A stretch of DNA of 64,000 nt from a virus. This document shows, in pieces, positions 1-30,872 of the stretch (the first letter of the stretch is position 1; every line of letters begins with the position of its first letter). The notes under the pieces were generated by a model. That model did not search any database. It was not told where the DNA came from and saw nothing but the letters and a program-made list of their open reading frames with translations. A program made the position numbers and the translations under genes. The stretch is from IMG/VR virus record IMGVR_UViG_3300042508_000910. The stretch is one strand, 5' to 3'.

Positions 1-3000
1 TGCGTTAAAGCTCGTGGTCATGTTATTTATCCAAATACTTTTACGGAGGAAAGTTATGGTGGAATTGATTATTCATTTGGATTTAATAATACAGGAATTT
101 GGTATCGTGGATTTACAGGAGAATTTGAGTTCAAATTAAATTCAAAAATTTCTGATATAAGAAATTCTACTTTAATGTTTTATTGGAATGCTCCAAGAAT
201 GAATATGTTAAATACTGGATCAGAACCTGATCTTTGGTGGGATTATCCAAAATTATGGATTTCTGGGGCAACTGGTCAAAACGCTCAATTATGGCTGCAA
301 TATCAAGGAAATACAAGTACAAACTGGTTAAGTAATACACAATATATTTCTGGTTATTCTCCATATGGATTTAATAGTTTAGATTTTGTACAAAATAACT
401 ATTCTGGAATTAGACCATTCCAAGTAAATAAATGGAACAAGATTAGATACGAACAAACTTCTGCTCCTATTGGAGATCCAAATGGATATCTTAGTAGTTT
501 TGGAAATCCTTTCCCAGGTCATAATATAAGAATATATGTTAATAATATTTTACGCATATCAGGTATTACCGCTGCGTATACTCCATATATTGATGCGAGT
601 AATAGTGGGCTTCATCATCATATGGGCTTTAGATTATTTCCTAATTTTAATGAATTTGCTCTTGATACTAATCAACGAGAAGTCTTTATTAAAAATTTTA
701 GATTTACTGGAACTAATAGCGTAACTGTAAATGATATTTTAGATACTCAAGATAAACCTAGTGGAAATTTAATATATAATACAAATCTAGTAAGAACAAC
801 TTATCCAAGTCGCGATTATGGATATTATTTAACAGAATTTGGTTATGATAATTTTTATAAAAATGATGCAAGAGTTATTACAGGTTATAGTGGAATTGGT
901 TCAAGATTTCAATTTGGTCCTGGACAAATTCAAAAACCTTTTAGCGGAATTATTGACATTAATAATTTGTATACAAACTCGATTATAAACACTGGAGGAA
1001 TTAGTGTGACTAATTCTTTTGTAATTAGAGAGCAAAAAACGACAAAAATAAGAAACCTATCTAGCTCATATTATGGTGTTCTACCAGCTAAAGTAGAAAC
1101 AAATGCAAAATATATTGAAATAGATTTAGGTTCTGGTCATGCAATAGAAGCTCATATGACCTCTGGTCAAGCAGATTTTACTATCTCTGCTTGGGTGTAT
1201 CCTCAAGTACAAAAAACTCCTTGGTTACCAAACGGAGCAGATATAACTGGAAATAGATCTAATTTAAAAACTTTAATAGCATTTGTACAGGAAACTGGTA
1301 CAGGAGTATTAAAAATTGCAAATCCTAATTGGACTTGGGGATTATTTGTTGGGGCTGTAGAAACAACTGGATATGGAGATAACTCTTTTGGATATGCAAC
1401 GGATTTGCCTTATCCTTATGGGTCACAAAGAATATCGTTAGATACAAGACCAGGAGTTGCTGGCGATCCTTATTCAAATACTGGAGCTTTTTTATTTGGA
1501 TCTTTTGACGGAATGACCTCGTCTGGTACATTATGTTCTAATGAAGTAGGTTATGTGCCAAATCATACTCTTGGAAGATTGTGGACCACTGGTACATCTT
1601 TCAGAGGTGTAAGTCCTTCAATATTTACAGGAGAAAGTCCATTTAATTTTGTCCCTACACCAACTTATGGTGTTTTAAGTGAAATGAGATTAATACCTAA
1701 TCAGTGGAATCATGTTGCATTTTCTTATGATGCCACTAAAAGTTATTATTATAATAATACAAGAAATATAAGATATTATATAAATGGTAATCTTGTAACA
1801 TCTGGACGTAAGAACTTTAGCGCAAGAGCTTCTAAAGGTGATGCCACTTCATATTATGGAAACTTCAACAAAATATATATTGGAGCTATGCCAGTTTTAA
1901 GTGGAGTAAGAAGAGAACTAGTATCGCATGCATTTCAAGGTTATATTGGTGAAGTAAGAATTGATGACTATGCAATTACTGGAGAATCCTTTAATGTTCA
2001 AGGATTTATAGATGAGTTTAGAAGACCTTTATTACATGTAAAACCATCTGGATCAAATATATTTATATCTGATAATTCAAATTTAAAATATAATAAAAAA
2101 CATTTGTCTACAAATTATGTTACTGGATATGTAGACTATTTAGCTAATTTTACTCAAAACTTTATAACAGGAAGATATTATCCTCCAACAACTTTTGGTA
2201 TGAGTAGTTGGATAAATTCTGTAAGTGAAAATGTTTATTCTGGAACTTTTGCGTCAGCATCTGGAAGAAATTCAATAGAAAATAATAAAAGGCTTCAATT
2301 TAAAGTGTTATTAAACTCTTTAAATACTTCTACAAATACGGGAATTAATGTTAACTTTGTAAATAAATTTAATACTGGTGTTGTTAACAATTTTAATTAT
2401 ATCGTGCTTCCTAGCTATATTCAAACTGGAAATATATATAATAATTTTTCTAAGACTGGATTTAAGATAAATAATTTTACAAGCAGTGGATTTAGAGTCA
2501 AAATAGATAATACATTATCATTAGATACAACAGGCATGTTTTTTGTTGCACAAACTGGTGCTTTTCGTGGAATAGATGGTAATTCTGGAAAATTTATAGA
2601 AATAAATTCACTATATTTAAGTGGCGCTAATAATCTTACTGGTGATCAATTCTTTAATGATTATACAGGATGGATTAGGATACCAAGGCTACTTAATGTA
2701 GATTATATTAATTATAATAAACCAAGATTTTTTGGTAATGTATATACTCAAAGTGGCTCGGATATAATTGATTCACAATATTCATATATATATCGTATAG
2801 GAGAGGTATCAGGAGCCGCACAATATCGTCAATATTTTTATTCTCCAGCAGCTAGTATTGCTTTTTCTTCACCAGATACATATCTTCCTTTTAGTGGTGG
2901 TGGTATGTATAGTCCTCCAGAATCTAATATTAATTTATTTGATATAATAACTGGAGGTACAGGAATGCCTATACCATTTTATCCAACAGCTTATCAGATA

Positions 3001-4152
3001 AAGATTTTGAAAGATGATTATTACAATATAGAATATGCTGCTACATTTGATAAAATAAGTGGTCCAGATGTTTCAAAATCTGTTTCATTTAGATTACAAA
3101 AAAGCGTAAATACTGGTTCAAATTGGTTCACAGTTCAAGAAAAAATATATACTGATTCCCATATATATTCTATGCATAATACTGGAATTGATTATGCATC
3201 ATCTGGAGATTTATATAGAGTAAATGTAAATGTATTTTATGATCCAACTGGGACAAATAATGAGATTTATAGTTCTCTCATAAGTATTTCACGACAAGAA
3301 GATTTTGATAATAGAAGAAACATTTATGTTAAACTAAATAATCCAAATATTGATTCATATGCTATTAATAAAAATAGAATGCTAACTGGTCTAAAGATAG
3401 ATTATATATTAACAGATGAAGACATTGATTATTCTACATTAAGAGAATTATTGGGTGAAGGAGCATTTGGTAGAGTTTCTCTATTGGGTTTCGAAGATGT
3501 AGGTAGTTCTTCTATATTCGGTGGAACAGGAAATTATATTAAAGGTTTAGTAAATACAATTGGTGGAGGTATAAATAACTCTATTATTGGAGATTACAAT
3601 ACTATCCCAGGTGGAAGATCAAATACTATTATAGACACTCCTCCTGGCAACTTACCTCCACAAGCATTGTTTTCTACTATTCTTGGTGGTAATTTCAATA
3701 CAATATCTGGCAATGTTGTTGACGGAGTAATTTTAGGAGGCGAAACAAATCTAATTATGAACTCCGCAAGAGACACTGCGGAGGAAATTACGGCAACATC
3801 TATTATAGGTGGAAAAAATAATGTCATTTCTGGATCTTATTCGACTATATTAGGTGGATTTAATAATATAGTTAGCGGAGCGTTTGGTTATGGATTAGGA
3901 AGAAATGTATTTAACACTAAAAGTGGATCTATGGTTTTATCAGACGCAACATCAAATCAATTAAAGCCTAGTTTCAATGAAAATAGTTTAACGTTATTTT
4001 TTACAAATGGCATGTATATAACTGGCGTTGATACTGGTTCAAATAGAGCGCCAATCATATTCGCTCTTAATTCATTACCAACAAGCAGTGGTCTTGTTCC
4101 AGTTGGTGGATTGTATAGAAGTGGTGATTTTATTAAAATCAGACTTTCTTAA
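1..4152 (+). CDS. Large tail fibre/virion structural protein (LamG-like domain, C-terminal GGxxN beta-helix repeats); 5'-truncated
   Basis: Frame is open from base 1 to the annotated ATG at 175, so the true start lies upstream of the window. LamG-like motifs FTISAWVYP, NQWNHVAFSYD, YYINGNL, FQGYIGEVRI; repeats TIGGGINN/TILGGNFN/IIGGKNN; rich in S/T/G/N. Confidence 0.7.
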   Translation, partial: CVKARGHVIYPNTFTEESYGGIDYSFGFNNTGIWYRGFTGEFEFKLNSKISDIRNSTLMFYWNAPRMNMLNTGSEPDLWWDYPKLWISGATGQNAQLWLQYQGNTSTNWLSNTQYISGYSPYGFNSLDFVQNNYSGIRPFQVNKWNKIRYEQTSAPIGDPNGYLSSFGNPFPGHNIRIYVNNILRISGITAAYTPYIDASNSGLHHHMGFRLFPNFNEFALDTNQREVFIKNFRFTGTNSVTVNDILDTQDKPSGNLIYNTNLVRTTYPSRDYGYYLTEFGYDNFYKNDARVITGYSGIGSRFQFGPGQIQKPFSGIIDINNLYTNSIINTGGISVTNSFVIREQKTTKIRNLSSSYYGVLPAKVETNAKYIEIDLGSGHAIEAHMTSGQADFTISAWVYPQVQKTPWLPNGADITGNRSNLKTLIAFVQETGTGVLKIANPNWTWGLFVGAVETTGYGDNSFGYATDLPYPYGSQRISLDTRPGVAGDPYSNTGAFLFGSFDGMTSSGTLCSNEVGYVPNHTLGRLWTTGTSFRGVSPSIFTGESPFNFVPTPTYGVLSEMRLIPNQWNHVAFSYDATKSYYYNNTRNIRYYINGNLVTSGRKNFSARASKGDATSYYGNFNKIYIGAMPVLSGVRRELVSHAFQGYIGEVRIDDYAITGESFNVQGFIDEFRRPLLHVKPSGSNIFISDNSNLKYNKKHLSTNYVTGYVDYLANFTQNFITGRYYPPTTFGMSSWINSVSENVYSGTFASASGRNSIENNKRLQFKVLLNSLNTSTNTGINVNFVNKFNTGVVNNFNYIVLPSYIQTGNIYNNFSKTGFKINNFTSSGFRVKIDNTLSLDTTGMFFVAQTGAFRGIDGNSGKFIEINSLYLSGANNLTGDQFFNDYTGWIRIPRLLNVDYINYNKPRFFGNVYTQSGSDIIDSQYSYIYRIGEVSGAAQYRQYFYSPAASIAFSSPDTYLPFSGGGMYSPPESNINLFDIITGGTGMPIPFYPTAYQIKILKDDYYNIEYAATFDKISGPDVSKSVSFRLQKSVNTGSNWFTVQEKIYTDSHIYSMHNTGIDYASSGDLYRVNVNVFYDPTGTNNEIYSSLISISRQEDFDNRRNIYVKLNNPNIDSYAINKNRMLTGLKIDYILTDEDIDYSTLRELLGEGAFGRVSLLGFEDVGSSSIFGGTGNYIKGLVNTIGGGINNSIIGDYNTIPGGRSNTIIDTPPGNLPPQALFSTILGGNFNTISGNVVDGVILGGETNLIMNSARDTAEEITATSIIGGKNNVISGSYSTILGGFNNIVSGAFGYGLGRNVFNTKSGSMVLSDATSNQLKPSFNENSLTLFFTNGMYITGVDTGSNRAPIIFALNSLPTSSGLVPVGGLYRSGDFIKIRLS

Positions 4153-4927
4153 GTCTTTCTATTAATTCAAATACTTTACTTTTTGGTATATCTTTAATAA
4201 AATTAAAGCTTTCTGCTCCATCGAATTTTTCTTTAATCAATTTCTTCTTTAAGGTATCGAAAGAAATATTTTTATCTTGCATTATTTTTTCCAATAAAAC
4301 AGTTGGATTCATTGGATTTTCTTTTTCTGTATCTTCTTTTGCTACTAGCCCTAATTTGGCATCTCCTAATTCTTCTTGTGATACAATATTGATCTTTAAG
4401 AAATTACGAACACAACGAACAAATGCTCTATTTTCCGCTATAGCTGCAAGAAAATAACGAGCAAAATCTTTAGTATTTACAAGAGATGCATCTGCAAGAG
4501 CTTCAAATGTCACAGGACGATTTCCTGTCTCATAATTAGGTATCCAAGTAATCTTACAAGATGTTGCGAAATAATTATCGGTAGCAGTTACTACATTATA
4601 TTCAACACTAGTAAATCCTCTAATTTGAGCTAGCTCCTTAATTCCACCAAGAAGTATTAAAAGATCTTTATCTTCCAGTTTTGAAACATCTGTCTCTTGT
4701 GTTCTTTGACGATTTGGGACAAGATATTGTGTTTTAACCATTGCTCTCCAATTGATAGAGCCATCATCATTAAAAATATAATTTATATTATCGTTTTCTA
4801 GTAAGCCAAAGCTATTTCTTATAAAGAGTTTTGGAGGAATAATCCTTGGTTCTTGTATAAGAACATTTGCTGCAATAGAGTCTATTTTATTCAACTCTGA
4901 ACTATTGATTGAGATTGATTCTTCCAT
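4139..4927 (-). CDS. Putative Rad52/Rad22-superfamily single-strand annealing protein
   Basis: LLGGIKELA...FEALADAS...AIAENRAFVRCVRNFL resembles the AETRAxxRAL signature; lies in the replication operon. Confidence 0.5.
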   Translation of the reverse strand: MEESISINSSELNKIDSIAANVLIQEPRIIPPKLFIRNSFGLLENDNINYIFNDDGSINWRAMVKTQYLVPNRQRTQETDVSKLEDKDLLILLGGIKELAQIRGFTSVEYNVVTATDNYFATSCKITWIPNYETGNRPVTFEALADASLVNTKDFARYFLAAIAENRAFVRCVRNFLKINIVSQEELGDAKLGLVAKEDTEKENPMNPTVLLEKIMQDKNISFDTLKKKLIKEKFDGAESFNFIKDIPKSKVFELIERLKKV

Positions 4928-4933: not shown

Positions 4934-4962
4934 ATTGTAATATATATTTAATCTTTTGTCAA
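4934..4962 (-). promoter_or_regulatory. Sigma70-type promoter, leaderless transcript
   Basis: TTGACA-17-TACAAT, 6 nt before the ATG at 4927. Confidence 0.75.
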
Positions 4963-6117
4963 CTCAAATATGTATAAATGTTTTGCTTCTTCCCAAAAAT
5001 CTTCATGATCAATAATTTTTATTGGTTTACCTTGGAATGGTATATTTAATTTATATGCAGCTTTAGAATTGTATGTATTACCATTACTTAATGTATATTT
5101 ATTAGATTTATAATAAATATCATTTAAATTATTTAAATTTAATTTTAAATCATTTTTACATGTCTTTGGATTAACCATTATTTGTGCAACATCTAAATAA
5201 CTTAACTTTAGAGAATTTACAAAGTTTTCATTTAGAAATGTAGACAATATAAATGGTCTTGCTAGTTTTTTAAGATTTTTAGCAAATTCTACATCGTGAT
5301 TTTCATCTATATTATAGATTATTTGATCTATATTACCCTTAAAAGTATTCAATATATTATAATCTATTTTCTTATCAGTTATAATTGAGCATCTATTTCT
5401 CTTAAGCTGTTCTGCTAAATTTCTCTCGTTAAATTCATAATCCATTCTAATAATTAAAGATTCGATACCAAATTGTGATATATTCTCTATTACTTGATTT
5501 GGAACAGATTCTATTAGCGTTCTATTATAATTCTCTCCTAAAAATATTGTTTTAATTTTATTTGACTCTAGATTTAGATACTCTAAAACAGAATTAGCTA
5601 TATCTGCTGGATTAATTTTATTTATTGTTTTTGGATTTTCTACTGCTGAATAACTTGGTTTTCTGCTCCTATCAACTTCAAATATTTTAATATTTTCCTT
5701 AGAGCTAAAATAAGGTCCAGCATTTTCTGGGCGACTATTAGAATATAAACAGACTATTTTTTTATCAAAATGACTTGCGATATGTACGCCAAAACTATCT
5801 ACTCCTAGATGTAAAATTCCTTTATTTATTAAATATGCGGCTTGACCTATTGATGTTTTACCTTGAAGATGATAACAATTTTGAATTGGTTTTTCATCTT
5901 TTCCACCAATTTGTACTATATGAATATTATGTTCTTGTAATTTAAAGAATAATTGGTCTATTACCTCTTGCCAATAATCGTAGCTTTTTGCATCATACTT
6001 ACTATAAGGTTGAAATGATATGTATTTTTCAAATGGAACTGGGCAATACTTTTGATATATATATGGTTTATCAATTTTTAATCCACAATTTAGAGCGTAT
6101 GTTTCAATTAGGTGCAT
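4948..6117 (-). CDS. GT9 (heptosyltransferase-like) C-terminal domain plus unknown domain
   Basis: KSYDYWQEVI, IVQIGG, GKTSIGQAAYLI, LGVDSFGVHIA match the donor-binding half of GT9. Confidence 0.7.
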   Translation of the reverse strand: MHLIETYALNCGLKIDKPYIYQKYCPVPFEKYISFQPYSKYDAKSYDYWQEVIDQLFFKLQEHNIHIVQIGGKDEKPIQNCYHLQGKTSIGQAAYLINKGILHLGVDSFGVHIASHFDKKIVCLYSNSRPENAGPYFSSKENIKIFEVDRSRKPSYSAVENPKTINKINPADIANSVLEYLNLESNKIKTIFLGENYNRTLIESVPNQVIENISQFGIESLIIRMDYEFNERNLAEQLKRNRCSIITDKKIDYNILNTFKGNIDQIIYNIDENHDVEFAKNLKKLARPFILSTFLNENFVNSLKLSYLDVAQIMVNPKTCKNDLKLNLNNLNDIYYKSNKYTLSNGNTYNSKAAYKLNIPFQGKPIKIIDHEDFWEEAKHLYIFELTKD

Positions 6118-8020
6118 ATTTAAAGTCCTTATAAGCTATATTTGTTTTACCATTATGAAGGTATGTTAAAAATCTTTGAGTTTGAGAATATGGTAAAAAT
6201 GCTATTTCAAAAAATCCATTATGATCTCCACCACCTTCTAGCCATATTAAACTGTCCATTTGTGGAACGTATTGTATAATTTTATCTACATATGGATTAG
6301 CTTCTAAAACATCAAAATATTCCTGTTTTGTAGCAACATAGAATTTATAGTTTGGATATTGTTCTTTGATAGATTTGAAAAGGCTTGTTGACAAGAATAT
6401 ATCTCCTATACTTTCTGGCATAACATATAACAATCTTTTAGATTCATCGTCTTTATCCAATAAATCCTCAAAAGATATTTTTTTAGATTCTTTATTTTTC
6501 TCATTGGCTACATGTCTAAAATAGTTTTCTACATCTGCTCTGCTTTTACCTTTAGATAGTTCATCTAACCAATATCTAACACCATCATCATTATTCTCTA
6601 CTTGCATTTTTAATATATGTTTATACATATATTTTAACCATTCTAAATTCTCTTTTATATCTGGGACTTGATGATATGGGTCTTTTTCTTCAAATTTAAA
6701 ATTAATACTTTTATCAATTGTTTTGCAAGAGTCTATAAAAGATTCTATGGTTTTTCCAATGCTCTCTACGGAATAATTATTAATTGTCCATTGTCTAGCT
6801 TTATTGCCAAAATCTTTTCTTTCTTCAATTGACATTGAATAAACTATTTGTAATTTATCAGCTATGGACTTTGGTAAAGTAGAAGCTTTAATAAATTCTG
6901 TTCCATGCTCTCTATACTCTGCCCATTCTAATGGCAAACTATAGGCTTCTTTTTGACACATTTCTTCTCCACATGAGTAATTAGTGACTAATGTGATTAG
7001 TTCGGCTAGTTTTGCTTCTTGTATTGGAATCTCTTGACCACCGCTCGTAAATGGATGACAATACACATCCATTAAATTATAGATTTGATTTAATTCTTCC
7101 TCTGTTACACCTATGCCTACATTAGTTGTAATCTGTGACTTTGCAGATCTGCAGTATTTACAGTCCAAATCTTGACCAGTGAAATTTTTTACTTCATATT
7201 CTCCGCAAGCTCTGCATATATATGTTGTATATATTTCTCTAGGATCAATACCATATTCTTGGGCTAGTTTCATTATATTCCAGCCTTCTCCAAAATGAGT
7301 GTGAAGTAGCAAGCCACTATTTTTTACATTATTTTCTTTCTTCCACAATGCATATCCTTCTAAAAGATTCGGAACACTCTTTCTTAATTGATTTCTAAAT
7401 ACAAATCCGACTATAAATTTATTCTTGTCTATATTAAACTTATTTCTTAACTCAAGTCGTTTTTCATCTGATAATCTATAGAAATTAGAAGTATCTAAAG
7501 CTCCATGAACAGTTTTTACATGATTATGGCCTAGTTTATGCAAAGCTTGAGTTGCGAAATCACTCCAAATCCAGTAATTCTTTACTTTTGGAGAACACTT
7601 AACTGCTGAATCTAATATAGGCAAGGAATCGAGAGTTGTCCATATTACAGAATTGATTTTATTGAACCAAGGTTTATCTATAGCAAAATCTACGCCCCAT
7701 ATATCTTGCACCGCAATATAAACATCTGGTCTTTCATTTTCAATAACCTCATCTAACAAATGTGCTCCATAACTTGCCATTCTAGCTAGATGAGGATCTC
7801 TATTCAGTTTTTCTATCTCTTGTTGGTTATCTGGTAATGATCCAAGACTTTTCCATGGTGTTCTTTCTAATTGTGGGTTACCTTTTTGCATTCCACAGCA
7901 ATAATGCACAATATCATATTTGCCAGTACTATATAAATATTTTAAGATAGCTTTGGCATTTCTTCCAAAGCCAGTCTTTGCTAAACTAAAGTCTGATTGA
8001 AAAACTATTTTTTTACGCAT
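6104..8020 (-). CDS. GT4 glycosyltransferase with Zn-ribbon insert, DUF4214-like segment and C-terminal GT9 N-domain
   Basis: TGFGR, RNQLRK, SGGQEIPIQEA (GT-B); CRAC...CKYC; DDGVRYWLDEL; PESIGDIFLSTSLF...NPYVD. Confidence 0.75.
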   Translation of the reverse strand: MRKKIVFQSDFSLAKTGFGRNAKAILKYLYSTGKYDIVHYCCGMQKGNPQLERTPWKSLGSLPDNQQEIEKLNRDPHLARMASYGAHLLDEVIENERPDVYIAVQDIWGVDFAIDKPWFNKINSVIWTTLDSLPILDSAVKCSPKVKNYWIWSDFATQALHKLGHNHVKTVHGALDTSNFYRLSDEKRLELRNKFNIDKNKFIVGFVFRNQLRKSVPNLLEGYALWKKENNVKNSGLLLHTHFGEGWNIMKLAQEYGIDPREIYTTYICRACGEYEVKNFTGQDLDCKYCRSAKSQITTNVGIGVTEEELNQIYNLMDVYCHPFTSGGQEIPIQEAKLAELITLVTNYSCGEEMCQKEAYSLPLEWAEYREHGTEFIKASTLPKSIADKLQIVYSMSIEERKDFGNKARQWTINNYSVESIGKTIESFIDSCKTIDKSINFKFEEKDPYHQVPDIKENLEWLKYMYKHILKMQVENNDDGVRYWLDELSKGKSRADVENYFRHVANEKNKESKKISFEDLLDKDDESKRLLYVMPESIGDIFLSTSLFKSIKEQYPNYKFYVATKQEYFDVLEANPYVDKIIQYVPQMDSLIWLEGGGDHNGFFEIAFLPYSQTQRFLTYLHNGKTNIAYKDFKYAPN

Positions 8021-8643: not shown

Positions 8644-11184
8644 TTATTTTTCTTTAATTTCTCCAAGTTTCATAAATATCTTATGATCTTGAATAGCTAT
8701 TAAGTCTGCAAAAACTGAATCTTCACTCTTTTTCCTTCCTCGAACAATTACTATATTATTTTCGTCTGGTAATACATTATTCATTTCTTTACATTCTTCA
8801 ATCTTATCGTTAAATATGAGAGCATTAATACTAGATGTTTCATCTTGAATATTAAGTCTTAGATATCTTGTCTTTTTACTGTTATTTGCCACGCCTAAAT
8901 ATTGGTCTTTAATAACCCCGATAAATAAAACTGGCAATCCTTCTGGAGCCTCATTAACTTCTCTAATATTAAGAAGATCTGGCTTTTGATCAGAAAAAAT
9001 ATCTTTTAATGTTGTATTATATGTATAACCTAATAGTTTATTTTCATAATACCAATTTGCAAATCTTTCGTTTTTACTATTCTGCTCGTAAATCTTCTTA
9101 TATGGTGTGTACGCTTTCCTAATTGTCTCTAGTCTAGAGTCTTTAATTATGTTCTTGCCTTTCTCGTCTTTAGTAGAATTAAGAAATTTAATTATCTTAA
9201 ATAGATCGTAATCAAATTTCTCTCCATACATCATTGCATATTTTTGTTCATTTTGATTAAGTATATTCCAAAGTTGAGCTTCTAAAACCACTTTACTTCT
9301 TGATTGTTTAAAGTTTTCTAAAGCTCCAGCTTGTATTAGCGGGGACAATACTCTAATAGATAGTTTAGCTTGTTGGGCAGATTTGAATACATCAAATTTT
9401 GTAGCATACTTATTCCTAAAATTATTAAGTCTTTCAATTGATTTATCTGATATACCCTTAATTGATAAAAGGCCGAATCTAATATCTTTATCTTCCACGC
9501 TAAAATCCATTTCAGACTTTACTATATGCGGTGGTAATAATTTAATATTAAATAGATCCATCTCTTTATGAATTTTAGATATTTCTGCAATAGGATCTGG
9601 TTCGAACCTAGTCATCTTTAGCAAAGATAAAAAGAATTCTTTGGGGTATTTAAATTTTAAATAGATTGTAATTGCTGCCAAAGCTGCATAACTTTGACTA
9701 TGACTTGCATTAAAAGAATAGTTTGCAGAATCTTCTAAGATCTTCCAAAGAACTTCTCCAACTTCTTTTGGTAGATTATTTTTTGTACATTTCTTTTCAA
9801 TCTTTTCTTTCCAAGCTTTAATTTCTTCTACCTTTTTCTTTCCTACAATTCTTCTTAGAATTTCTGCCTCGTCTAATGTAAATCCTATCTTATGTGCCAT
9901 TTGCATAAGCTGTTCTTGATAAAGAGCTACGCCCCCAGTTCTCTTTAGAATATCATCAAAAAATGGATGAATCGATTGAAAGTCTCCAGTTTCTACATAT
10001 TTAGCGTATTGATCTACGAATTGCAAAGCTCCAGGTCTAGCAAGAGCTAATACTCCACTCAATTCTTCTGAGTTTCTAGGCTTAACTTTTTTACAAACTT
10101 TAAAATTAGTATCTGCTTCAATTTGAAAAAGACCATGTGGACTTTTAAGGTCTTGCAATTGTTGGTAAATAAAATTATCTTCTATATCAATATCTTCAAT
10201 ATTTTTATTGATCATGCTACATACATCATAGACTACGGATACGCTTCTTAAACCTAATAAGTCTAGCTTAACATTAAATTGACTAATATCATTCATATCA
10301 AATGCGCTTACAGGCTCTTTGTCAGATGATAACTCTAATGGACAAGCATCGGAAAGTGGACTATGAGAAATTTGGACTCCAGATGGATGTACGCCTTTAT
10401 TTTTAATAAGATTGCGAAGCTTTAGAGCTATATTATATATCTCTGAATTTTCATCACACCATTCTTTAAACTTTTCTACCTCTGTATAAGCGTCAGCAAT
10501 ATCTTTAACTTGACCGAAAACCTTTGGAATTAAAGAGCTTACTCCAGTCATTTCAGTCTCACTTTTTTCATCAACAATCTTACCGCACTCTTTAATTAAT
10601 AGCTTTCCACTCAAAGTATTAAATGTAAGAATCTTGCTTATTCTATTAGGGAATATTTCATTAAGGAAATCTATAACTTTATGTCTATTATAATAACAAA
10701 TATCCAAATCTACGTCACACATTAAACTGCCGTCTAGATACGTTATTCCATCAACAACCTGCTTTTTAGCTCGAATCTTAGATATAAATCTTTCAAAATA
10801 AAGGTTATGTTTAATTGGGTCAATCTTTGTCACCCCAATAAGATATAAAATAAGACTTCCTGCTGCACTTCCTCGACCTAGACCAGTTGGTATTTTATTC
10901 TCTTTGCAATAATCAATAACAAGCCAAACTAAAATAATATAATCAATAAAGCCTAAATCTTCTATAATCTCAAATTCATGATCGAGTCTCTTTTTGTATT
11001 CTTTGCTTTGTGGTAAATTTGAATAAGCAAGCTTTTTTAAGAATTCTGTATTTGATGCATCTTCTGATAAACCTAGATTTCTTTTATGATCTACCTTTAC
11101 TTTAAATTCTGGTAGTCTTACTCCATACAAAGGCAAATCAATCTTATCGAATGAATTAACAAAATCAGAACTCTTCGTCATCAT
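8644..11184 (-). CDS. dnaE: DNA polymerase III alpha, catalytic core lacking the PHP domain
   Basis: GLGRGSAAGSL, CDVDLD, HPSG, KLDLLGL, LYQEQ, YSFNASH, IRFGLLSIKG, C-terminal OB fold. Confidence 0.95.
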   Translation of the reverse strand: MMTKSSDFVNSFDKIDLPLYGVRLPEFKVKVDHKRNLGLSEDASNTEFLKKLAYSNLPQSKEYKKRLDHEFEIIEDLGFIDYIILVWLVIDYCKENKIPTGLGRGSAAGSLILYLIGVTKIDPIKHNLYFERFISKIRAKKQVVDGITYLDGSLMCDVDLDICYYNRHKVIDFLNEIFPNRISKILTFNTLSGKLLIKECGKIVDEKSETEMTGVSSLIPKVFGQVKDIADAYTEVEKFKEWCDENSEIYNIALKLRNLIKNKGVHPSGVQISHSPLSDACPLELSSDKEPVSAFDMNDISQFNVKLDLLGLRSVSVVYDVCSMINKNIEDIDIEDNFIYQQLQDLKSPHGLFQIEADTNFKVCKKVKPRNSEELSGVLALARPGALQFVDQYAKYVETGDFQSIHPFFDDILKRTGGVALYQEQLMQMAHKIGFTLDEAEILRRIVGKKKVEEIKAWKEKIEKKCTKNNLPKEVGEVLWKILEDSANYSFNASHSQSYAALAAITIYLKFKYPKEFFLSLLKMTRFEPDPIAEISKIHKEMDLFNIKLLPPHIVKSEMDFSVEDKDIRFGLLSIKGISDKSIERLNNFRNKYATKFDVFKSAQQAKLSIRVLSPLIQAGALENFKQSRSKVVLEAQLWNILNQNEQKYAMMYGEKFDYDLFKIIKFLNSTKDEKGKNIIKDSRLETIRKAYTPYKKIYEQNSKNERFANWYYENKLLGYTYNTTLKDIFSDQKPDLLNIREVNEAPEGLPVLFIGVIKDQYLGVANNSKKTRYLRLNIQDETSSINALIFNDKIEECKEMNNVLPDENNIVIVRGRKKSEDSVFADLIAIQDHKIFMKLGEIKEK

Positions 11185-11413
11185 TTTTCTTCTTACGCTT
11201 TTTCCTAGATTTATTAATAGATTTATCTAAATTTTGTTGAAATTCGGTTAGGCCTTCTTTTAAGGCGGCGAAAGATTTTTCTTCGTTATTTAATGAATAG
11301 AATACATCTGCTTTACTATTAGTCTTGCCGTGTTGTAAAGTTATTAAAAGATAATCAATATTCTCTTTTTCAAACTTATTCAATATATCGTATATAAAAT
11401 CCATTGATGCCAT
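11165..11413 (-). CDS. Hypothetical protein (likely start MASMDF at 11413)
   Basis: Upstream promoter places the start at 11413 rather than 11485; basic then acidic C-terminus. Confidence 0.6.
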   Translation of the reverse strand: MASMDFIYDILNKFEKENIDYLLITLQHGKTNSKADVFYSLNNEEKSFAALKEGLTEFQQNLDKSINKSRKKRKKKNDDEEF

Positions 11414-11422
11414 AATAAAAGT

Positions 11423-11451
11423 ATTATATGTGTTTATTGTTCTAAATGCAA
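11423..11451 (-). promoter_or_regulatory. Sigma70-type promoter for the hypothetical-dnaE core unit
   Basis: TTGCAT-17-TATAAT, 9 nt before the ATG at 11413. Confidence 0.65.
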
Positions 11452-12093
11452 TCAAATATTTACCATGTATTTGATTTTGTTCCAAACCTTAAAATTTAAC
11501 TCCAAATCTGAGAGTGCGTTATGTAGTGAATCATAATCGTGTTGTATATCTAAATCTTTTCCAGCTGCAGTTAAATTTGTTCTCACATTTTTGACTTTAG
11601 TATGATAAAGTTTGTACATATATTCTGGCAGACTTTCTTTTTTAGAATCGAATGAGTTTGAGGTTTTAATACCTTTATATAGAAGATTTGTATCAATAGA
11701 TTTTTTAATAAAATCAAAAGGCTTTAAACCCATAAATTTATAATATTCACTTAACATATAAAGATCAAATCCTAAGATATTATGCCCAACAATATAATCC
11801 GCTTTTTCTAACCAATCTTGCATTGTTGGAAAAAATGCTTCTGGTGATATACCATGTTTTTCGATATTCTTTGGATCATATCTTGTTATTCTTGCCGCAT
11901 CTTTACTTACTTTAAGATGAGTATTCCATTTTAAATAGACATCTTTAGAATCAATAATTCTATCTCCTTGACATTTAAGCATAGCTATTTGCCAAGGTCT
12001 ATTATGACAATAATTTAAACATAAATTAAATGTCTCACAATCTATAAAAACTAATGTTTTATTCTTATCGAATCTTAGTAGATGTTCATCCAT
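11452..12093 (-). CDS. DEDDh 3'-5' exonuclease (DnaQ/epsilon-like)
   Basis: FIDCET, GHNILGFD, HNALSD. Confidence 0.9.
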   Translation of the reverse strand: MDEHLLRFDKNKTLVFIDCETFNLCLNYCHNRPWQIAMLKCQGDRIIDSKDVYLKWNTHLKVSKDAARITRYDPKNIEKHGISPEAFFPTMQDWLEKADYIVGHNILGFDLYMLSEYYKFMGLKPFDFIKKSIDTNLLYKGIKTSNSFDSKKESLPEYMYKLYHTKVKNVRTNLTAAGKDLDIQHDYDSLHNALSDLELNFKVWNKIKYMVNI

Positions 12094-19275: not shown

Positions 19276-19606
19276 TTAAAAACTCCTTTAATGTTTTTAT
19301 TTTTTTTACTACAATTTTATCATTCCCTATTTTGTTATCTTCTAAATTATAGGTATTTTTTGATTCATTGTCAAGTATAAATGATTGTTTTTGGTTTAAT
19401 AGGTATTTTTTACCATCAAAAGAAAGCAACCAATCTAAAGATTTAAGGTTTTTTGATTTTACCTTGAACCAGAAGCTGGAATTTGGTTCGAATTTTATTA
19501 ATTTTTTCGCTTGACTTATTTCGTAACCCCAAGGTATATTCTTTGATTTTACGAATTTTTTCACGATAAAACAACACAATTTGTGTCCAGATAAGGTGTT
19601 TCTCAT
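19268..19606 (-). CDS. Hypothetical protein (probable start 19606)
   Basis: Coupled to recA; TTGAAA-17-TAAACT at 19618-19646 upstream. Confidence 0.55.
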   Translation of the reverse strand: MRNTLSGHKLCCFIVKKFVKSKNIPWGYEISQAKKLIKFEPNSSFWFKVKSKNLKSLDWLLSFDGKKYLLNQKQSFILDNESKNTYNLEDNKIGNDKIVVKKIKTLKEFLNG

Positions 19607-20471
19607 AGTCAAATAAGAGTTTATCATACTTTTTAAGATTTTTCAATACATATTTTGGACAATTATTTCTATTCAATAAAACTCTAGAAAAAGATTCTCC
19701 AGAATTTAAATCGTTTGACTTTCCATTTTTTATATTATCTTCTATTAAAATGGCATCATTATTTGGCCATTTATTATTTTCCTGATGAGAATAAGAGGAT
19801 ATTTTATATAAAATATCTTGAATATCTTTATAAAAATATGAATAATGCCATCCTGCATCGTTTAGTATAAAACATTCATCTTTAGGAGTTTTTGTTCTAA
19901 GATTTTGCATAGTTGATATATTATTTTTTTGAGTAATAATTGGGCTAGTTGATTTATTTGTGCCATTCATTTTATTATCAAATTTATAGAAATAATTATC
20001 TAAACTTAAACGTATATACTTTCTATTATTTTTATATATTTCATAAAAAGCATCTATAACCTTACTTTTCCTAGGAATTTCATCTAAATCACTTAAAATA
20101 ATTAAATCTTTTTCTGAACTATTTATTGGAAGAAATGGCAAATTAAGACCTTCCATTATTTTATTTCTTTGAAATGTTTCAGTTTCCCATGGATTTGGAG
20201 ATCTGATAAAATCATTGTTCTGGATATATATTATTTTATGATTAAATTTTTTTATTTTTTCTTTGTCTAAGATAAATCCTTTTCCATTTTTTGTAAATGT
20301 GCTACTTGATTCAACAATAACAAAAAAATCAACAACAGAATTTAATTCATTTAGTCTAACTTCTAAAAGATCGTTTTCATTAAAAAATAAAAAACAATCA
20401 TATATTTTAACAGAATTTCTATTGTTTTTAAAAAAATGATATTTTTTTACTTGTTCTAATAAATTTATCAC
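19443..20471 (-). CDS. GT17 (MGAT3-like GlcNAc transferase) glycosyltransferase
   Basis: DCFLFFNENDLLEVRLNEL, WETETFQRN, SDLDEIP, GWHYSY. Confidence 0.85.
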   Translation of the reverse strand: MINLLEQVKKYHFFKNNRNSVKIYDCFLFFNENDLLEVRLNELNSVVDFFVIVESSSTFTKNGKGFILDKEKIKKFNHKIIYIQNNDFIRSPNPWETETFQRNKIMEGLNLPFLPINSSEKDLIILSDLDEIPRKSKVIDAFYEIYKNNRKYIRLSLDNYFYKFDNKMNGTNKSTSPIITQKNNISTMQNLRTKTPKDECFILNDAGWHYSYFYKDIQDILYKISSYSHQENNKWPNNDAILIEDNIKNGKSNDLNSGESFSRVLLNRNNCPKYVLKNLKKYDKLLFDYEKHLIWTQIVLFYREKIRKIKEYTLGLRNKSSEKINKIRTKFQLLVQGKIKKP

Positions 20472-20478
20472 GTAATAT

Positions 20479-21531
20479 TTACACGTTAGATTTTATATCT
20501 GATTCTACCATTCTTTTTACAAGATTGTCAAAAGATATTTTTGGCGCCCAATTTAATTCTTTTCTCGCCTCCGAAGAATCTCCCAAAAGTAAATTAACTT
20601 CTGCAGGTCTATAAAATTTAGGATTCACGATCACAAGTGGTATAAAATTTCCATCTTCTTTTTTAAGATAAAAAGCTTCATCTTCGTCTCTTCCATCTCC
20701 AGTATAAATCCAATGCCCTTCTATATTTATTGTTCGAAACGCTTTTTCAATGAATTCTCTAATGCTATGCGTTTCATTGGAGGATAAAATATATTCTTTA
20801 GGTTTTTCTTGATTTAACATTAACCAAATACCTTCTATAAAATCCTCCGCATGACTCCAGTCTCTTTTTGCATCAAGATTTCCTAATTCAATAGGGCTAA
20901 ATTCTTTATTATTTTTAATTGAATGATATATTTTTGCAACACCTTTAGTAATTTTTCTTGTAACAAATTCTTCTCCTCTGCGTTCACTTTCATGATTGTA
21001 TAGAATAGAATGAATTGCATATAAATTGTAAGAATCTCTATAGACTTTGGTAATATGCCTTGCCGCTGCTTTAGCTGCACCATATGGGCTTCTAGGACGA
21101 ATTGGATGTTTAAGATCTTGTGGACTATATAATACATCACCCATTTCTTCACTAGATCCTGCAGAATAAAATCTACATTCTGGTGAGTATTTTCTTATTG
21201 CCTCTAAACATCTAAGAACTCCTACGGCGGTTGCATCAAAAGTTTGTAAAGGTATTTGCCAACTACTTCCAACGAAAGATTGCGCTGCAAAATTTACAAA
21301 AAAATCTGGTTTTATTTCTTTAACTATTTCATCTATAGAATTGCTATCAGAAAGATCAGCTATTAGCATTTTAAATCTGGAATTATTTAAATTATGTTTA
21401 ATATTTTCTAAATTTGGGTTAGAACTTCTTCTTCTAACTCCATAAACCATATAGTCTGTATTATTAAGCATATAGTCTACCATATATGAACCATCTTGAC
21501 CTGTAACACCTGTTATAATAATTTTCTTCAT
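20479..21531 (-). CDS. gmd: GDP-mannose 4,6-dehydratase
   Basis: ITGVTGQDGSY, AAQSFV, PRSPYGAAK, NHESERRGEEFVTRKI, FYRPAEV. Confidence 0.95.
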   Translation of the reverse strand: MKKIIITGVTGQDGSYMVDYMLNNTDYMVYGVRRRSSNPNLENIKHNLNNSRFKMLIADLSDSNSIDEIVKEIKPDFFVNFAAQSFVGSSWQIPLQTFDATAVGVLRCLEAIRKYSPECRFYSAGSSEEMGDVLYSPQDLKHPIRPRSPYGAAKAAARHITKVYRDSYNLYAIHSILYNHESERRGEEFVTRKITKGVAKIYHSIKNNKEFSPIELGNLDAKRDWSHAEDFIEGIWLMLNQEKPKEYILSSNETHSIREFIEKAFRTINIEGHWIYTGDGRDEDEAFYLKKEDGNFIPLVIVNPKFYRPAEVNLLLGDSSEARKELNWAPKISFDNLVKRMVESDIKSNV

Positions 21532-22700
21532 AATTTATTAAGTCCTTTTGTTAAAAATAAAATCTGTTCTTTTTTTAGATTTGAATATAAGCCTACATAA
21601 AATCCAAAATTATGAATATATGTTGAATTTGGATAGTCCTTAGTCTTATCGAAAAAATCTTTGTAGCAAGTTTGATATCCTAAATACCCAGATATAATTG
21701 GTCTATACTCTATCTTATTAATTCTGCAGAATTCAATTGCTCTATAATATAAATCTTTATCATTCTTCTTAATTATAATTGGTAAACAAAATGGAACGTC
21801 TTCTTGTAGCTCTCGTTCCTCTGGAAGAAAAAATTTATTTAAATTTAAATTAGATTTATATATATCATATAGTTCTTTTCTTCTAAAGGTATATTTTTTA
21901 ATTCTCTTAAAATCTAATTCGCCTATATAAGCATTTAGATCTGTATTTCTAAAATTATTTCCTAGAGAATAGAAATCAAATAGTGAGTCTACTTTGGGGT
22001 TGATGTATTCTTTATTATTAATGCCATATGTTAAGAGACTCCTTGTCATTCCGTGATTTCTATTCATTAAAAAGTATTCATATTCTTTTTGAGAGTTTGT
22101 AAAGATAAATCCTCCTTCTATTGATTGTAATTGATGACCAAAATAAGTTGATGTAGAAGATGTAAAGTAACTAGATATATTTTTACTATTATAGCTACCT
22201 AGCGTATTTTCACAATTATCCATCATGATGTTAATATTAAATTTTTTCTGCAACATTTTATAGAAATCAATATCAATTGAGTAACCTATTAAGGATGTTG
22301 GAAATATGCAAGCGATTTTTTTATGATTGCTTTTGACAAAATCTAAAAGCTTCTTTTTATCTAGAGAAAAATTATCTAAAGATATATCAATAAATTTTGG
22401 GGTCATGCCTTCTCTAATCCAAGGAGAACAAGAAGTTTGCCACGTTGTTGATGGAAAGATTACAATTTTCTTTGTTTTAGTATAAATATTATCTTTGATA
22501 TACATTGACATTAAAGTATTAGCTGTAGATCCGCTTGAAACAAATACGGCATATTTTACGCCTATAAAATTTGCCATGTTTTTTTCAAATGATTTTACAT
22601 GAATATCTTGTGTCCATCTATTTTTTGGATTAATGATAAAACTAGATATTTTTAATCTATCTAAAAATGTAAAATTATTAATATTAAGTGGCCAATTCAT
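21528..22700 (-). CDS. DegT/DnrJ-family PLP enzyme, ColD/RfbH-type 3-dehydratase
   Basis: FVSSGSTAN, DNCE, STYFGHQLQSIEGG with His at the usual Schiff-base Lys position; adjacent to gmd. Confidence 0.8.
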   Translation of the reverse strand: MNWPLNINNFTFLDRLKISSFIINPKNRWTQDIHVKSFEKNMANFIGVKYAVFVSSGSTANTLMSMYIKDNIYTKTKKIVIFPSTTWQTSCSPWIREGMTPKFIDISLDNFSLDKKKLLDFVKSNHKKIACIFPTSLIGYSIDIDFYKMLQKKFNINIMMDNCENTLGSYNSKNISSYFTSSTSTYFGHQLQSIEGGFIFTNSQKEYEYFLMNRNHGMTRSLLTYGINNKEYINPKVDSLFDFYSLGNNFRNTDLNAYIGELDFKRIKKYTFRRKELYDIYKSNLNLNKFFLPEERELQEDVPFCLPIIIKKNDKDLYYRAIEFCRINKIEYRPIISGYLGYQTCYKDFFDKTKDYPNSTYIHNFGFYVGLYSNLKKEQILFLTKGLNKL

Positions 22701-23733
22701 GTTGATTTAGATGTTTAACTAAGTTTTCTGCGGTATATTTCCACTTCCATTTATCTATAATAGCAGTTCTTGTATCTATTTTTCCATAAAAATTCCAATT
22801 AGAATATATATTCTTTAAAAGATCAGCATATTTCTCAATATCAAAATCATAAAATCTAGGTTCCTCTGAATAACCAAATGAACCATAACAATTTAAAAGT
22901 CCCCAATAATTAACTAATTCATTTAATTTATCACCAATATTTATTTCATTAGACGGTTTCAATAAAATTCCATAATCTCTATTAATTAAAACATTAGTCG
23001 GTTCAAAATCTCCTGTAACACACAGACAGTTGCAGGCTGACATTTCGTGCAATGGAAAACCCCACGAAGTCATTCTCAATAAGTTTAATCCTACATGAGA
23101 GGAAGAATACATATCTCTTATTTCTTGCCTTGTTAATCTTTTGGTAATATATTCAATGTTAGATCCTTTATTTTTAAGCTCTTGTATTCTAGTCTTTAGA
23201 GTATCTACATTAGTATTTGTATCTTTTATTATAAGTCTAACATTCTTATTGTTTTGAAATGCTATATGAAATGCTTGAAGCGTTAAGTCTAGACCAGATC
23301 TAACGTTACTGCTATTTACATGTATAAATGTAAATATATTATCTTTCGGTAAAGTCTGATGCCAAAAATCAGTATCACATCCGCAGTGTAATGTTTGACA
23401 GTTTATTCCTTCTTTTAAATATAAATTAGTAATCTGATTGCTCATTCCAAAAATAATTTTGTTTTGATCTTTTAACATTTGAATATGAAAATTTGTAATT
23501 TTATTTATTGTTTCCCAAACAGTTATATAGAATGATTTTTTATCTTTATATTGTTGATGAAAATTTAAACTAGATGGGAATCCTATATATTTTGCAGAAT
23601 CTTGATCAGAATAAAATCCAATTTCTTTAAGTCCTTGATTTAGTCCATAATTAATTACAGAGAATGATCCATGATTATCTTTAAAAGTTGGGTCTGAGTA
23701 AAATCTTGGATCTTCTTCAAATAAATGTATCAT
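22684..23733 (-). CDS. GT4-like glycosyltransferase
   Basis: TVWET, RSGLD, TSWGFPLHEM. Confidence 0.75.
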   Translation of the reverse strand: MIHLFEEDPRFYSDPTFKDNHGSFSVINYGLNQGLKEIGFYSDQDSAKYIGFPSSLNFHQQYKDKKSFYITVWETINKITNFHIQMLKDQNKIIFGMSNQITNLYLKEGINCQTLHCGCDTDFWHQTLPKDNIFTFIHVNSSNVRSGLDLTLQAFHIAFQNNKNVRLIIKDTNTNVDTLKTRIQELKNKGSNIEYITKRLTRQEIRDMYSSSHVGLNLLRMTSWGFPLHEMSACNCLCVTGDFEPTNVLINRDYGILLKPSNEINIGDKLNELVNYWGLLNCYGSFGYSEEPRFYDFDIEKYADLLKNIYSNWNFYGKIDTRTAIIDKWKWKYTAENLVKHLNQHELAT

Positions 23734-23737
23734 ATTT

Positions 23738-24757
23738 TTAATTTAGTATTTGATTAATAATATTATATAAGCTTATGGCACTTTTTTCCCATGTAAATTT
23801 TTGCGCCGAAATCGATCCATAAATACTAATTTTATTTCTTAAATCATTGTCATCTAAAAGCTGTCTCATTGAATGTCTAACGCTTTCTTTTACTGGTATG
23901 GCCCAATAAGGTTGTTTTGGATGCATTGATGGATCAAATAAATGATTTCTTAATCCTATAGAATTTAAATAATTAATATCAAAGTTTGTAAATGGCTCTA
24001 GATTAAATTTAACATGTATAGCAGAAAAATCATGAGTTGTATAATCTCTAGGTCCAGCATATGGAATAACGATTAAAGGAGTTCCAGTACTCATACATTC
24101 AATAGTCCTTAAATTCCATGTGCTAGTTTTATTTAAACAGATTGCTATATCTGCTTCATAATAAATATCTTTTTCTTGTTCAAAATTTTCAAGATGTCTA
24201 TCATCGTGAACAATCTCTACATTAAATTCTCTTGCTTTTTCTTGAATCCATGTCTTGAAAGTTGAGCTTGATTCTCTATCTCTTATGTAAAGTTTTACTG
24301 ATTTTGTATTTTTAAATTCTTCACAAAAATTTTCCACAATCAATTCTAGTCCTCCTCTTGAATTGGATTCCCCAATCCCTAATATAGTAAATTTATCTTT
24401 CTTATATTTTTCTTTGAATTTCCAAATATCTGAATCTACCCCTAAATTAAAATAATCGCATAAATTTTTTGGATATCCTGCTTCTAATATAAAATTAAGA
24501 TTATCTTTTGACACACCAAATATTGGTATTGGATGAACATTATTAAATATAAAATGTGGAAATATTAATTCATAAACAATAATCATTGCATCTGGATTAT
24601 GCCCATGTTTATTGCCTATACAATCATAAACTATTTTATAACCATCTTTAGAATAAATTCCTAGTTTTTCTGCAGATTTATTTAAATTAGAGATAATAAT
24701 ATCACTACTTCTATAAGGTCTATTATTTGGATCTCCTAAAACTTGAATTTTTTTCAT
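23738..24757 (-). CDS. GT4-like glycosyltransferase
   Basis: LGVD, RGGLE, STWNLRTIECMSTGTP, FTWEKSA. Confidence 0.75.
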   Translation of the reverse strand: MKKIQVLGDPNNRPYRSSDIIISNLNKSAEKLGIYSKDGYKIVYDCIGNKHGHNPDAMIIVYELIFPHFIFNNVHPIPIFGVSKDNLNFILEAGYPKNLCDYFNLGVDSDIWKFKEKYKKDKFTILGIGESNSRGGLELIVENFCEEFKNTKSVKLYIRDRESSSTFKTWIQEKAREFNVEIVHDDRHLENFEQEKDIYYEADIAICLNKTSTWNLRTIECMSTGTPLIVIPYAGPRDYTTHDFSAIHVKFNLEPFTNFDINYLNSIGLRNHLFDPSMHPKQPYWAIPVKESVRHSMRQLLDDNDLRNKISIYGSISAQKFTWEKSAISLYNIINQILN

Positions 24758-25518
24758 TTATATGGATTTAAATCATTAAAATATTTTACTCTGTCTTCTC
24801 TGCTTGTAGCTGGTAAATGTACAATAAAGTCTTCTGATTTAACATCATTCCAATATGCATTCATTTTATTATGCGGAAGAATATTAATTCTAGAAGAATC
24901 AATTTCATTATTTAAAAGAAAATGATGAAATGCTCTTTGATCCCACCAATTAGAACAATCAAAATGAAAATCTTTCTTAGCTAATAAAAATTCTAAAAAT
25001 GATACAGAATCTTTGCATTTTTTAATTAGAAACGTTCCAAGACATGGACCATTAACATTACAAACTGACAGCCAAAGAAATGGATCATTTTTTACTTTTA
25101 ATATTTTATTAGCTCTTTCTAGAGCTGGCATAGAAGAACAATTTATATTTTCATTAGAATGAATCAACACGCATTCATCAAGACTATCTAAAGATAAGAT
25201 ATTTTCAATTCTTATATTCTTATTGTGTATAAAAGCGTCTGCATCCATCCATAAGACATATTCATAATCATAATCTTGTAAAATTCTAGATATTATATAT
25301 ATTTTGTCCCAAGAAATTGGCAAGTTAATAAAGCCTTTTCTCTTATAAAGAAAATCATAATTATTTTCTTTGCAATATCTTAATTTATTTTGTAATGTTA
25401 AATCTCCAATATATTGATGATTATCATCATAAGCTGTATAAACTAAAATTTTTTTTATAGTATCTTCTGGTGTAAAAATACAAAAATTTAGATTTTGATC
25501 TAATTTATTCATTTGCAT
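24754..25518 (-). CDS. GT34 (GMA12/MNN10-like) glycosyltransferase
   Basis: SWDKI, YVLWMDADA, WWDQRAF, DFIVHL. Confidence 0.8.
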   Translation of the reverse strand: MQMNKLDQNLNFCIFTPEDTIKKILVYTAYDDNHQYIGDLTLQNKLRYCKENNYDFLYKRKGFINLPISWDKIYIISRILQDYDYEYVLWMDADAFIHNKNIRIENILSLDSLDECVLIHSNENINCSSMPALERANKILKVKNDPFLWLSVCNVNGPCLGTFLIKKCKDSVSFLEFLLAKKDFHFDCSNWWDQRAFHHFLLNNEIDSSRINILPHNKMNAYWNDVKSEDFIVHLPATSREDRVKYFNDLNPYK

Positions 25519-26323: not shown

Positions 26324-26372
26324 AATTTTATTAAAATGGCATCTTTATTATTATTTATAATATCTTACAAAT

Positions 26373-30846: not shown

Positions 30847-30872
30847 TGTATGTTGCTCCTTTATTTAATGAT

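Follow-up and report, generated by a model that had tools for sequence, protein, structure and literature searches.

The window analysed here, a stretch of 64,000 nucleotides (IMG/VR record IMGVR_UViG_3300042508_000910), derives from an uncultured, lake-derived phage of low GC content (~29%) and a size of ~170 kb. It begins with a gene for a fibre-like tail protein (1-4152, plus strand), which is the subject of this study. Behind it lie a convergent gene for a 262-residue protein and a pair of glycosyltransferase (GT) genes, then replication genes, an island of sugar genes at 19.4-34.4 kb and a virion module at 35-45 kb. The fibre gene is truncated on its 5' side by the window edge, and the 1383 codons present represent the C-terminal part of a protein whose homologues are 1824-3384 residues long. 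Within this protein, glycine is preceded by serine or threonine far more often than composition predicts. Our analysis shows that this excess of the dipeptide [ST]G is real, conserved and lineage-specific, and that it is confined to one class of proteins, the tail and fibre proteins, of one clade of phages.

The initial annotation had placed about 60 of about 135 glycines behind Ser or Thr and had estimated the share of these two residues at about a fifth. The exact figures for the 1325-residue form that starts at ATG-175 (175-4152) are 62 of 136 glycines and 234 Ser and Thr residues (17.7%); the whole open frame holds 64 sites. Composition-keeping shuffles gave an expectation of 24.0 (ratio 2.58, z 9.2), and none of 1000 shuffles attained the observed count. 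The densest stretch comprises codons 681-1100 of the open frame, where Ser or Thr precedes 26 of the 34 glycines, in agreement with the earlier remark that glycines in the middle of the protein belong mostly to SG and TG pairs. These pairs are dispersed rather than tandem, since their spacing is near-geometric, and autocorrelation peaks do not exceed 0.1 in this protein or in most of the other strongly biased proteins described below. TG (z 7.2) and SG (z 5.0) are the most deviant common dipeptides of the open reading frame (ORF), with ratios of 2.97 for Thr-Gly and 2.27 for Ser-Gly; the corresponding ratios in the strongly biased set of a complete relative, G001, are 3.47 and 2.41. The bias is directional, as the reverse pairs Gly-Ser and Gly-Thr are not enriched in the fibre ORF, and other pairs ending in glycine are under-represented (NG 4 against 13.8 expected, AG 1 against 5.5). 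When all other ORFs of the window are pooled, [ST]G occurs 91 times against 87.5 expected (ratio 1.04); the enzymes show no excess, as had been suspected for the replication enzymes.

A compositional, codon-level or mutational artefact would be the most trivial explanation, and it might be suggested by the Ser and Thr codons themselves, which carry T at the third position in 77% of cases before glycine as opposed to 51% elsewhere. We consider its probability negligible. The excess survives the shuffles with z values of 9-14, it has a direction, and neighbouring genes lie at 1.0 or are depleted. Furthermore, the codon pairs AAT-GGN and GCT-GGN are depleted in the fibre ORF, and therefore the excess acts on amino acids and a nucleotide motif can be ruled out; the third-position T before GGN is also found for other amino acids. 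This preference for T over A before GGN is a window-wide codon-pair effect, seen in other four-fold codons as well (43% against 31%), and may reflect avoidance of A-GGA, that is, of Shine-Dalgarno-like strings.

The fibre protein contains a Laminin_G_3/ConA-like lectin domain at 1666-1986 (plus strand; Pfam PF13385, E 3.4e-09, residues 498-604 of the 1325-residue form), which assigns it to the Laminin_G_3/ConA-like family as defined by a PF13385 match or a jelly-roll fold. It has no PHROG relative, PDB sequence searches with it and with two other strongly biased proteins gave nothing useful, and a tblastn search against 50,697 phage records returned zero matches. An exhaustive HMMER search over 1.8 billion representatives yielded only three homologues and a word-index search one more; the homologues include P0003, P0004 and P0001 as well as G007 47404-52875. 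The three long homologues, at 33-49% identity, show ratios of 2.4-2.6 (z 12-14) over their whole length, and at 43% identity ~65% of the individual positions are still [ST]G. Ser or Thr in front of glycine is kept as Ser or Thr in 73-90% of cases, against 43-59% for the other Ser and Thr residues (Fisher p 2e-4 to 5e-6), and exchanges between Ser and Thr are tolerated at the sites; thus the hydroxyl group is the conserved feature. Evolutionarily young glycines follow the same rule, being preceded by Ser or Thr in 37-38% of cases, against a Ser and Thr content of 16-18%.

Related phages were gathered through the structural protein phrog_1645, and eleven large contigs were examined over their whole length. 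The distribution in G001, a complete relative of 166.5 kb, is bimodal: eight large proteins are extreme (e.g., 82 sites against 22 expected, or 33 against 8.7), whereas the large proteins encoded next to them do not exceed expectation. Over all related contigs, 45 proteins passed a strict threshold and are referred to here as strongly biased; pooled, they contain 2018 sites against 737 expected, with a ratio of 0.93 for the reverse dipeptide. Together with the three database homologues of the fibre protein, they form 18 phmmer-independent groups without detectable sequence relation, and LamG, FG-GAP, leucine-rich repeat (LRR) and ConA-like plus ribbon types occur among them. One such family, of 599 residues, was expanded from a database of 5.8 billion proteins, and 65 of 65 members had ratios of 1.9-4.2, down to 26% identity. 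In G001, four paralogues of 559-655 residues (L091:1061-16666, equal to G001 54061-69666) carry the HExxH (HELGH) zinc-metallopeptidase motif with weak Reprolysin matches; they alternate gene by gene with the strongly biased proteins and are themselves depleted in [ST]G about three-fold (7 against 21.9, or 9 against 28.4 when a fifth depleted protein of 899 residues is included).

In the sister clade, with ~48% identity in phrog_1645, no strongly biased protein was found among the 9-14 large ORFs per contig, and even its giant proteins are only slightly raised (4043 residues, ratio 1.3; 2432 residues, ratio 1.2). Within the trait-bearing clade, a family of 2370 residues, which is probably of tape-measure size, stands at 0.99. 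The long-fibre proteins gp34-37 of T4 have ratios of 0.9-1.3, with no strong [ST]G bias and no avoidance of NG, and the adhesin Ag43 likewise shows no excess (0.99).

The surroundings of the sites are also constrained. In 837 pooled sites, I, V, L or F prevails at position -1 and V, I, F, L or W at +2, a position from which Pro (0.2x) and Gly (0.3x) are excluded. Upstream, at -1 and -2, there is a depletion of Asp (0.4-0.5x); Glu is not enriched, and no longer motif emerges. Asn and Asp, the usual turn formers before glycine, are under-used. An AlphaFold2 model of residues 226-1383 of the fibre protein, built from a five-sequence alignment, reached a mean predicted local distance difference test (pLDDT) score of only 31, and the 599-residue family was folded instead (pLDDT 85.5; predicted template modelling score, pTM, 0.76). 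In this model, a long two-stranded ribbon of (I/V)-T-G repeats links two ConA-like/LamG jelly rolls, and the Foldseek matches are lectin-like jelly-roll domains. The ribbon holds 14 of the 33 sites, and for most of the remainder the distance to a strand end is 0-3 residues; mapped on this related family, the sites thus occupy strand ends, turns and the beta-ribbon, and do not clearly lie in cores. In the member L092:15044-16840 (minus strand), residues 255-332 consist of (I/V)-T-G units with glycines spaced 3-4 residues apart, modelled as a two-stranded beta-ribbon of ~38 residues between ConA-like domains, and this element probably belongs to an oligomeric shaft of the fibre.

These properties agree with a purely structural idiom, in which S/T-Gly would act as a strand cap or tight turn, the hydroxyl capping the backbone and the glycine adopting a left-handed conformation, and the same pair would build the (I/V)-T-G ribbons. 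No modification would be involved, and the idiom would have spread by module shuffling among fibre genes. The hydrophobic context with its exclusion of Pro and Gly, the placement of sites in the model and the positional conservation all fit this explanation. Some sites are plainly of this kind. A 367-residue protein of G001 (10389-11489, minus strand; L094:10389-11489), encoded near the phrog_1645 structural gene, is composed of 23-residue LRRs of the plant-specific type (NQLTGSIPSLSGLSNL...), in which [ST]G forms the canonical L-[ST]-G-x-I-P element of the consensus L-x-x-L-x-L-x-x-N-x-L-[ST]-G-x-I-P, twice per repeat; the Rossmann motif TGxxGxxG of short-chain dehydrogenase/reductase enzymes is another example of structural [ST]G. 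The LRR architecture, however, accounts for that protein alone, and no such periodicity exists in the fibre protein or in most of the others.

Moreover, idioms of this kind track folds and not lineages, whereas the trait is carried by 18 unrelated groups of differing domain types and is missing from the same fold classes elsewhere: from the T4 fibres, from a LamG-like family of the virion module, from the giant proteins of the sister clade and from the beta-helix of Ag43. The usual turn formers N-G and D-G are avoided, young glycines obey the rule too, and the interleaved HExxH paralogues are depleted. Structure alone can account for where the sites are located, but not for an adoption restricted to one lineage and to the outer tail. 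We regard a purely structural origin as a substantial possibility, short of probable and nearly as likely as the glycosylation proposed below. The simplest way to account for a motif that unrelated families of one lineage share, and that fold classes of the same kind lack elsewhere, is a factor that is extrinsic and specific to the lineage, with the phage's own soluble glycosylation machinery as the obvious candidate.

Selection for chemical longevity offers a different reason for the avoidance of Asn and Asp. In long-lived extracellular parts of the virion, Asn-Gly and Asp-Gly, the pairs most prone to deamidation and isomerisation, would be replaced by S/T-Gly, and the ratios of NG (0.37) and DG (0.51) in the family of the fibre protein are in line with this. 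In the strongly biased set of G001, though, Asn before glycine (0.60) is depleted no more than the average residue other than Ser and Thr. The phrog_1645 structural protein retains invariant N-G and D-G pairs, the T4 fibres do not avoid NG, and equal usage of NG and DG has in part been seen in other exposed virion proteins of the same phages. It would also stay unexplained why Ser and Thr specifically should fill the position. NG avoidance was therefore rejected as an insufficient driver, and we consider this explanation very improbable.

The GT genes next to the fibre gene are of particular relevance to the search for an extrinsic factor. The first of them (4948-6117, minus strand) encodes a 389-residue protein with the C-terminal, nucleotide-sugar lobe of a GT9-type fold (PF01075, E 2.6e-13; lipopolysaccharide (LPS) heptosyltransferase profiles at 233-333) together with an unknown domain. 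The second (6104-8020, minus strand) encodes a 638-residue GT4/GT1-like protein whose C-terminus, according to profile matches, corresponds to the N-terminal lobe of GT9 heptosyltransferases. The two ORFs overlap by 14 nucleotides, and the same split is present in G001 (122605-124521 and 124526-125728). On the basis of these matches, a GT9-type GT-B fold appears to be divided between the two ORFs. An NCBIfam scan of both at E <= 0.01 gave no match to TIGR04414, only weak partial ones to LPS heptosyltransferases I-III. The conserved 262-residue gene (4139-4927, minus strand; orthologue G001 125770-126519) separates the GT pair from the fibre gene; the Atlas provided no function for it, only a weak lead (0.88-0.89) toward single-strand-annealing proteins.

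The GT pair and the trait occur together at the level of the clade. The 638-residue protein, with 42-81% identity across the trait-bearing relatives, is encoded in six of 20 related contigs, and each of these six bears 3-11 strongly biased proteins. Two further contigs, 52-58% complete, have such proteins at their ends, and three contigs of the sister clade, which are 35-53% complete, showed neither the trait nor GT1, GT2 or GT9 matches. No GT-free phages with homologous biased proteins were found for the comparison that the initial annotation had envisaged. In IMG/VR the 638-residue gene has more than 534 relatives, and at the best 80 of these loci 67 of the 215 large ORFs downstream, on the convergent side, were strongly biased, against none of 254 upstream, on the replication side. 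The loci without an ORF above the strict threshold do not provide clear-cut counter-examples, as they still carry moderately biased ORFs (1.6-1.9; small ORFs 2.3-4.6). At the nearest relative of the GT (81% identity), the fibre protein (L152:13869-21917) has a ratio of 2.5 but is only 38% identical to that of the window (1-4152); next to a GT pair that stays stable, the fibre gene thus either evolves rapidly or is exchanged.

A further set of carbohydrate genes is found in the sugar-nucleotide/glycosyltransferase island of ~15 kb (19443-34360, minus strand), where Pfam identified GT17, Gmd, an aminotransferase, two GT4, GT34, GT2, a C-methyltransferase, epimerases and an RmlD-like protein. Together with the GT9-like gene and the GT4-like member of the pair, the window thus provides both phage-encoded glycosyltransferases and enzymes of sugar-nucleotide metabolism. 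Pfam scans revealed no components of membrane export, flippases or polymerases among the sugar genes, and the acceptor should therefore be cytoplasmic. The island of G001 is different and smaller: it lacks most of the genes found in the window and possesses a GT17-like gene, three FkbM-type methyltransferases and Gmd.

Several known glycosylation systems invite comparison. In eukaryotes, proteoglycans are xylosylated at Ser-Gly, and O-GlcNAc is attached to EGF domains at ...[T/S]-G...; xylosylation is Ser-specific and prefers acidic flanks. The resemblance consists in a small glycine directly after the hydroxyl residue, which gives a transferase access to a turn of a folded domain. The analogy with the proteoglycan motif, on which the initial annotation had drawn, fails in the present case: Thr is at least as enriched as Ser, Asp and Glu are not enriched around the sites (Asp is even depleted) and the flanks are hydrophobic. 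No GT14-type enzyme was found in the window by Pfam scans.

The closest known phenomenon appears to be the virion glycosylation of mycobacteriophages (Che8 and relatives), which is carried out by phage-encoded glycosyltransferases (Freeman et al., 2023, as summarised in PMC12619734). In both cases phage GTs would act on the phage's own structural proteins in the cytoplasm and without export machinery, which for the window is proposed from its genes. The location of the glycan differs. In the mycobacteriophages it is found at the C-termini of capsid and tail-tube subunits, with no sequon known, whereas the candidate sites described here are dispersed along distal tail and fibre proteins, at one per 15-25 residues.

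Among bacteria, the heptosyltransferases TibC and Aah act on TibA, AIDA-I and Ag43, with Ser, not Thr, reported as acceptor, and Ser-313 of TibA, in an N-S-G-G turn of this beta-rich surface protein, is O-glycosylated in the cytoplasm (PMC4358343). What the two systems would have in common is a beta-rich surface protein that is densely O-glycosylated in the cytoplasm by a GT-B enzyme related to GT9. The TibC/Aah substrates, however, consist of regular 19-residue beta-helix repeats modified at Ser only, while the proteins studied here are aperiodic and at least as rich in Thr sites, and the GT9-like enzyme of the window is split over two ORFs and does not match TIGR04414. Membership of the TibC/Aah group can be ruled out on account of the enzyme model, the Ser specificity and the regularity of the repeats.

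Taking these observations together, we suggest that the S/T-Gly pairs are acceptor sites for O-glycosylation of the fibre proteins by GTs of the phage, a reading of the sequences that we hold to be quite possible, if short of probable. The pairs would be short hydrophobic-[S/T]-Gly-hydrophobic elements at strand ends and turns, under lineage-specific selection in outward-facing, fast-evolving tail and fibre proteins, and the adjacent glycine, being free of a side chain, would make the Ser or Thr hydroxyl accessible as an acceptor. O-glycosylation would take place inside the infected cell by soluble phage glycosyltransferases, among which the conserved split GT4/GT9 pair is the foremost candidate for attaching the sugar, with the variable sugar island supplying and diversifying the glycan. 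The resulting coat could serve for shielding, for stability or for contact with the host surface. In its most complete form, the proposal states that hundreds of uncultured aquatic phages use a sequon-directed, cytoplasmic and phage-encoded O-glycosylation to coat those tail proteins that contact the host, at turns of the form hydrophobic-[S/T]-Gly-hydrophobic, the two-chain GT4/GT9 enzyme attaching the first sugar and the fast-changing island diversifying the glycan; this combination we offer tentatively and with more doubt than the acceptor role as such. The initial annotation had already regarded S/T-G as an O-glycosylation site for the phage's own GTs. From that proposal, the excess itself withstood the composition control and the GTs co-occur with the trait at the clade level, and of the refuting conditions that the annotation had listed, those examined did not speak against it; the proteoglycan analogy was lost, the island in the composition found in the window proved dispensable and some of the sites turned out to be fold motifs.

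Several observations weigh against glycosylation. The hydrophobic flanks, strong positional conservation and strand-end or ribbon location of the sites are what would be expected of a structural motif, and the LRR and Rossmann pairs plainly belong to folds. Ag43 is named alongside AIDA-I as glycosylated (PMC3835316), and its lack of an excess indicates that such glycosylation need not leave an [ST]G signature. The association between the trait and the GTs at the clade level amounts to a single phylogenetic contrast plus inherited synteny, in which the sister-clade contigs represent only part of their genomes. Since the GT pair belongs to the replication block, it might act on a different substrate, and its proximity to the fibre gene may reflect no more than a boundary between modules; phage GTs can glycosylate DNA (bioRxiv 10.1101/2023.12.21.572611; PMC13326640). 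The lack of a TIGR04414 match in the GT9-like gene, mentioned above, is a further point of this kind. The composition of the window island is not required either, because G001 has the strongest trait with a different island, and no shift specific to the lineage is seen in the main structural protein, phrog_1645.

The extrinsic factor might also be of another nature, recognising [S/T]-Gly for phosphorylation, acylation or cross-linking, or as an assembly chaperone or protease, such as the HExxH paralogues of G001. The lineage-specific and fold-independent pattern calls for something outside the folds in this case as well, and the alternation of biased genes with the HExxH paralogues at 54-70 kb of G001 would fit a protease. 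Pfam scans near the biased genes, on the other hand, showed no kinase, acyltransferase or cross-linking enzyme, and the HExxH array was seen in G001 only and not in the window. We consider a factor of this type unlikely.

Should the glycosylation proposal be true, the motif would represent the first defined glycosylation sequon of bacteriophages, readable directly from sequence, and the glycosylation of phage virions would be a common phenomenon of lakes and oceans, beyond a curiosity of mycobacteriophages. Glycosylated proteins, even single sites, could then be predicted from metagenomes by a sequence signature. This would have a bearing on host recognition, virion stability, grazing and immune evasion, and would provide a compact toolkit for protein glycoengineering. 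If the motif is purely structural, it would still be an unusual design rule for the fibres of an entire lineage, unexplained by current knowledge of folds. In either case, an explanation is needed for a dipeptide that takes up half of the glycines in dozens of unrelated proteins.

The virion module of the window displays the bias in weaker form. The initial annotation had extended it to three ORFs of the module, for two of which it is present to a lesser degree: an RCC1-repeat-containing structural-module protein of 775 residues (39420-41747, minus strand; 17 sites against 10.0, z 2.5) and a virion-module protein of 165 residues (42774-43271, minus strand), where Ser or Thr precedes 7 of 13 glycines against 2.8 expected (z 2.9) and whose homologues in the near and intermediate clades have ratios of ~2. 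A structural-module protein of 333 residues (41760-42761, minus strand), not named at that time, has a moderate excess too (11 against 5.8). The third ORF, the phrog_1645 virion structural protein (43303-44688, minus strand), shows a mild excess (12 against 7.5, z 1.9), but the fraction of its glycines preceded by Ser or Thr is 0.23, 0.21 and 0.21 in the near, intermediate and far clades, with exchanges in both directions. As this fraction is equal in the trait-free sister clade, the ORF was removed from the finding.

A LamG_3-like virion structural protein (35251-35970, minus strand) served as an internal control of the same fold class and has no excess (4 against 3.8). Its LamG-like family, pooled, has 46 sites against 47.5 expected (~1.0), and the ConA-like/LamG fold therefore does not require the bias. 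The RmlD-like reductase of the sugar island (33488-34360, minus strand) is the sole enzyme with a nominal excess (6 against 1.8, p 0.003), with sites outside the Rossmann motif; given that 64 ORFs were tested, this is probably due to chance. Within the structural module, a DUF6734 gene (38639-39433, minus strand) adjoins the RCC1-like protein; its neighbours in the Atlas are almost all viral, and the comparison yielded no function for it. Finally, the 165-residue protein at 42774-43271 has a segment of ~37 residues in common with the phrog_1645 structural proteins of many relatives, at 59-73% identity, which suggests a shared attachment or assembly module.

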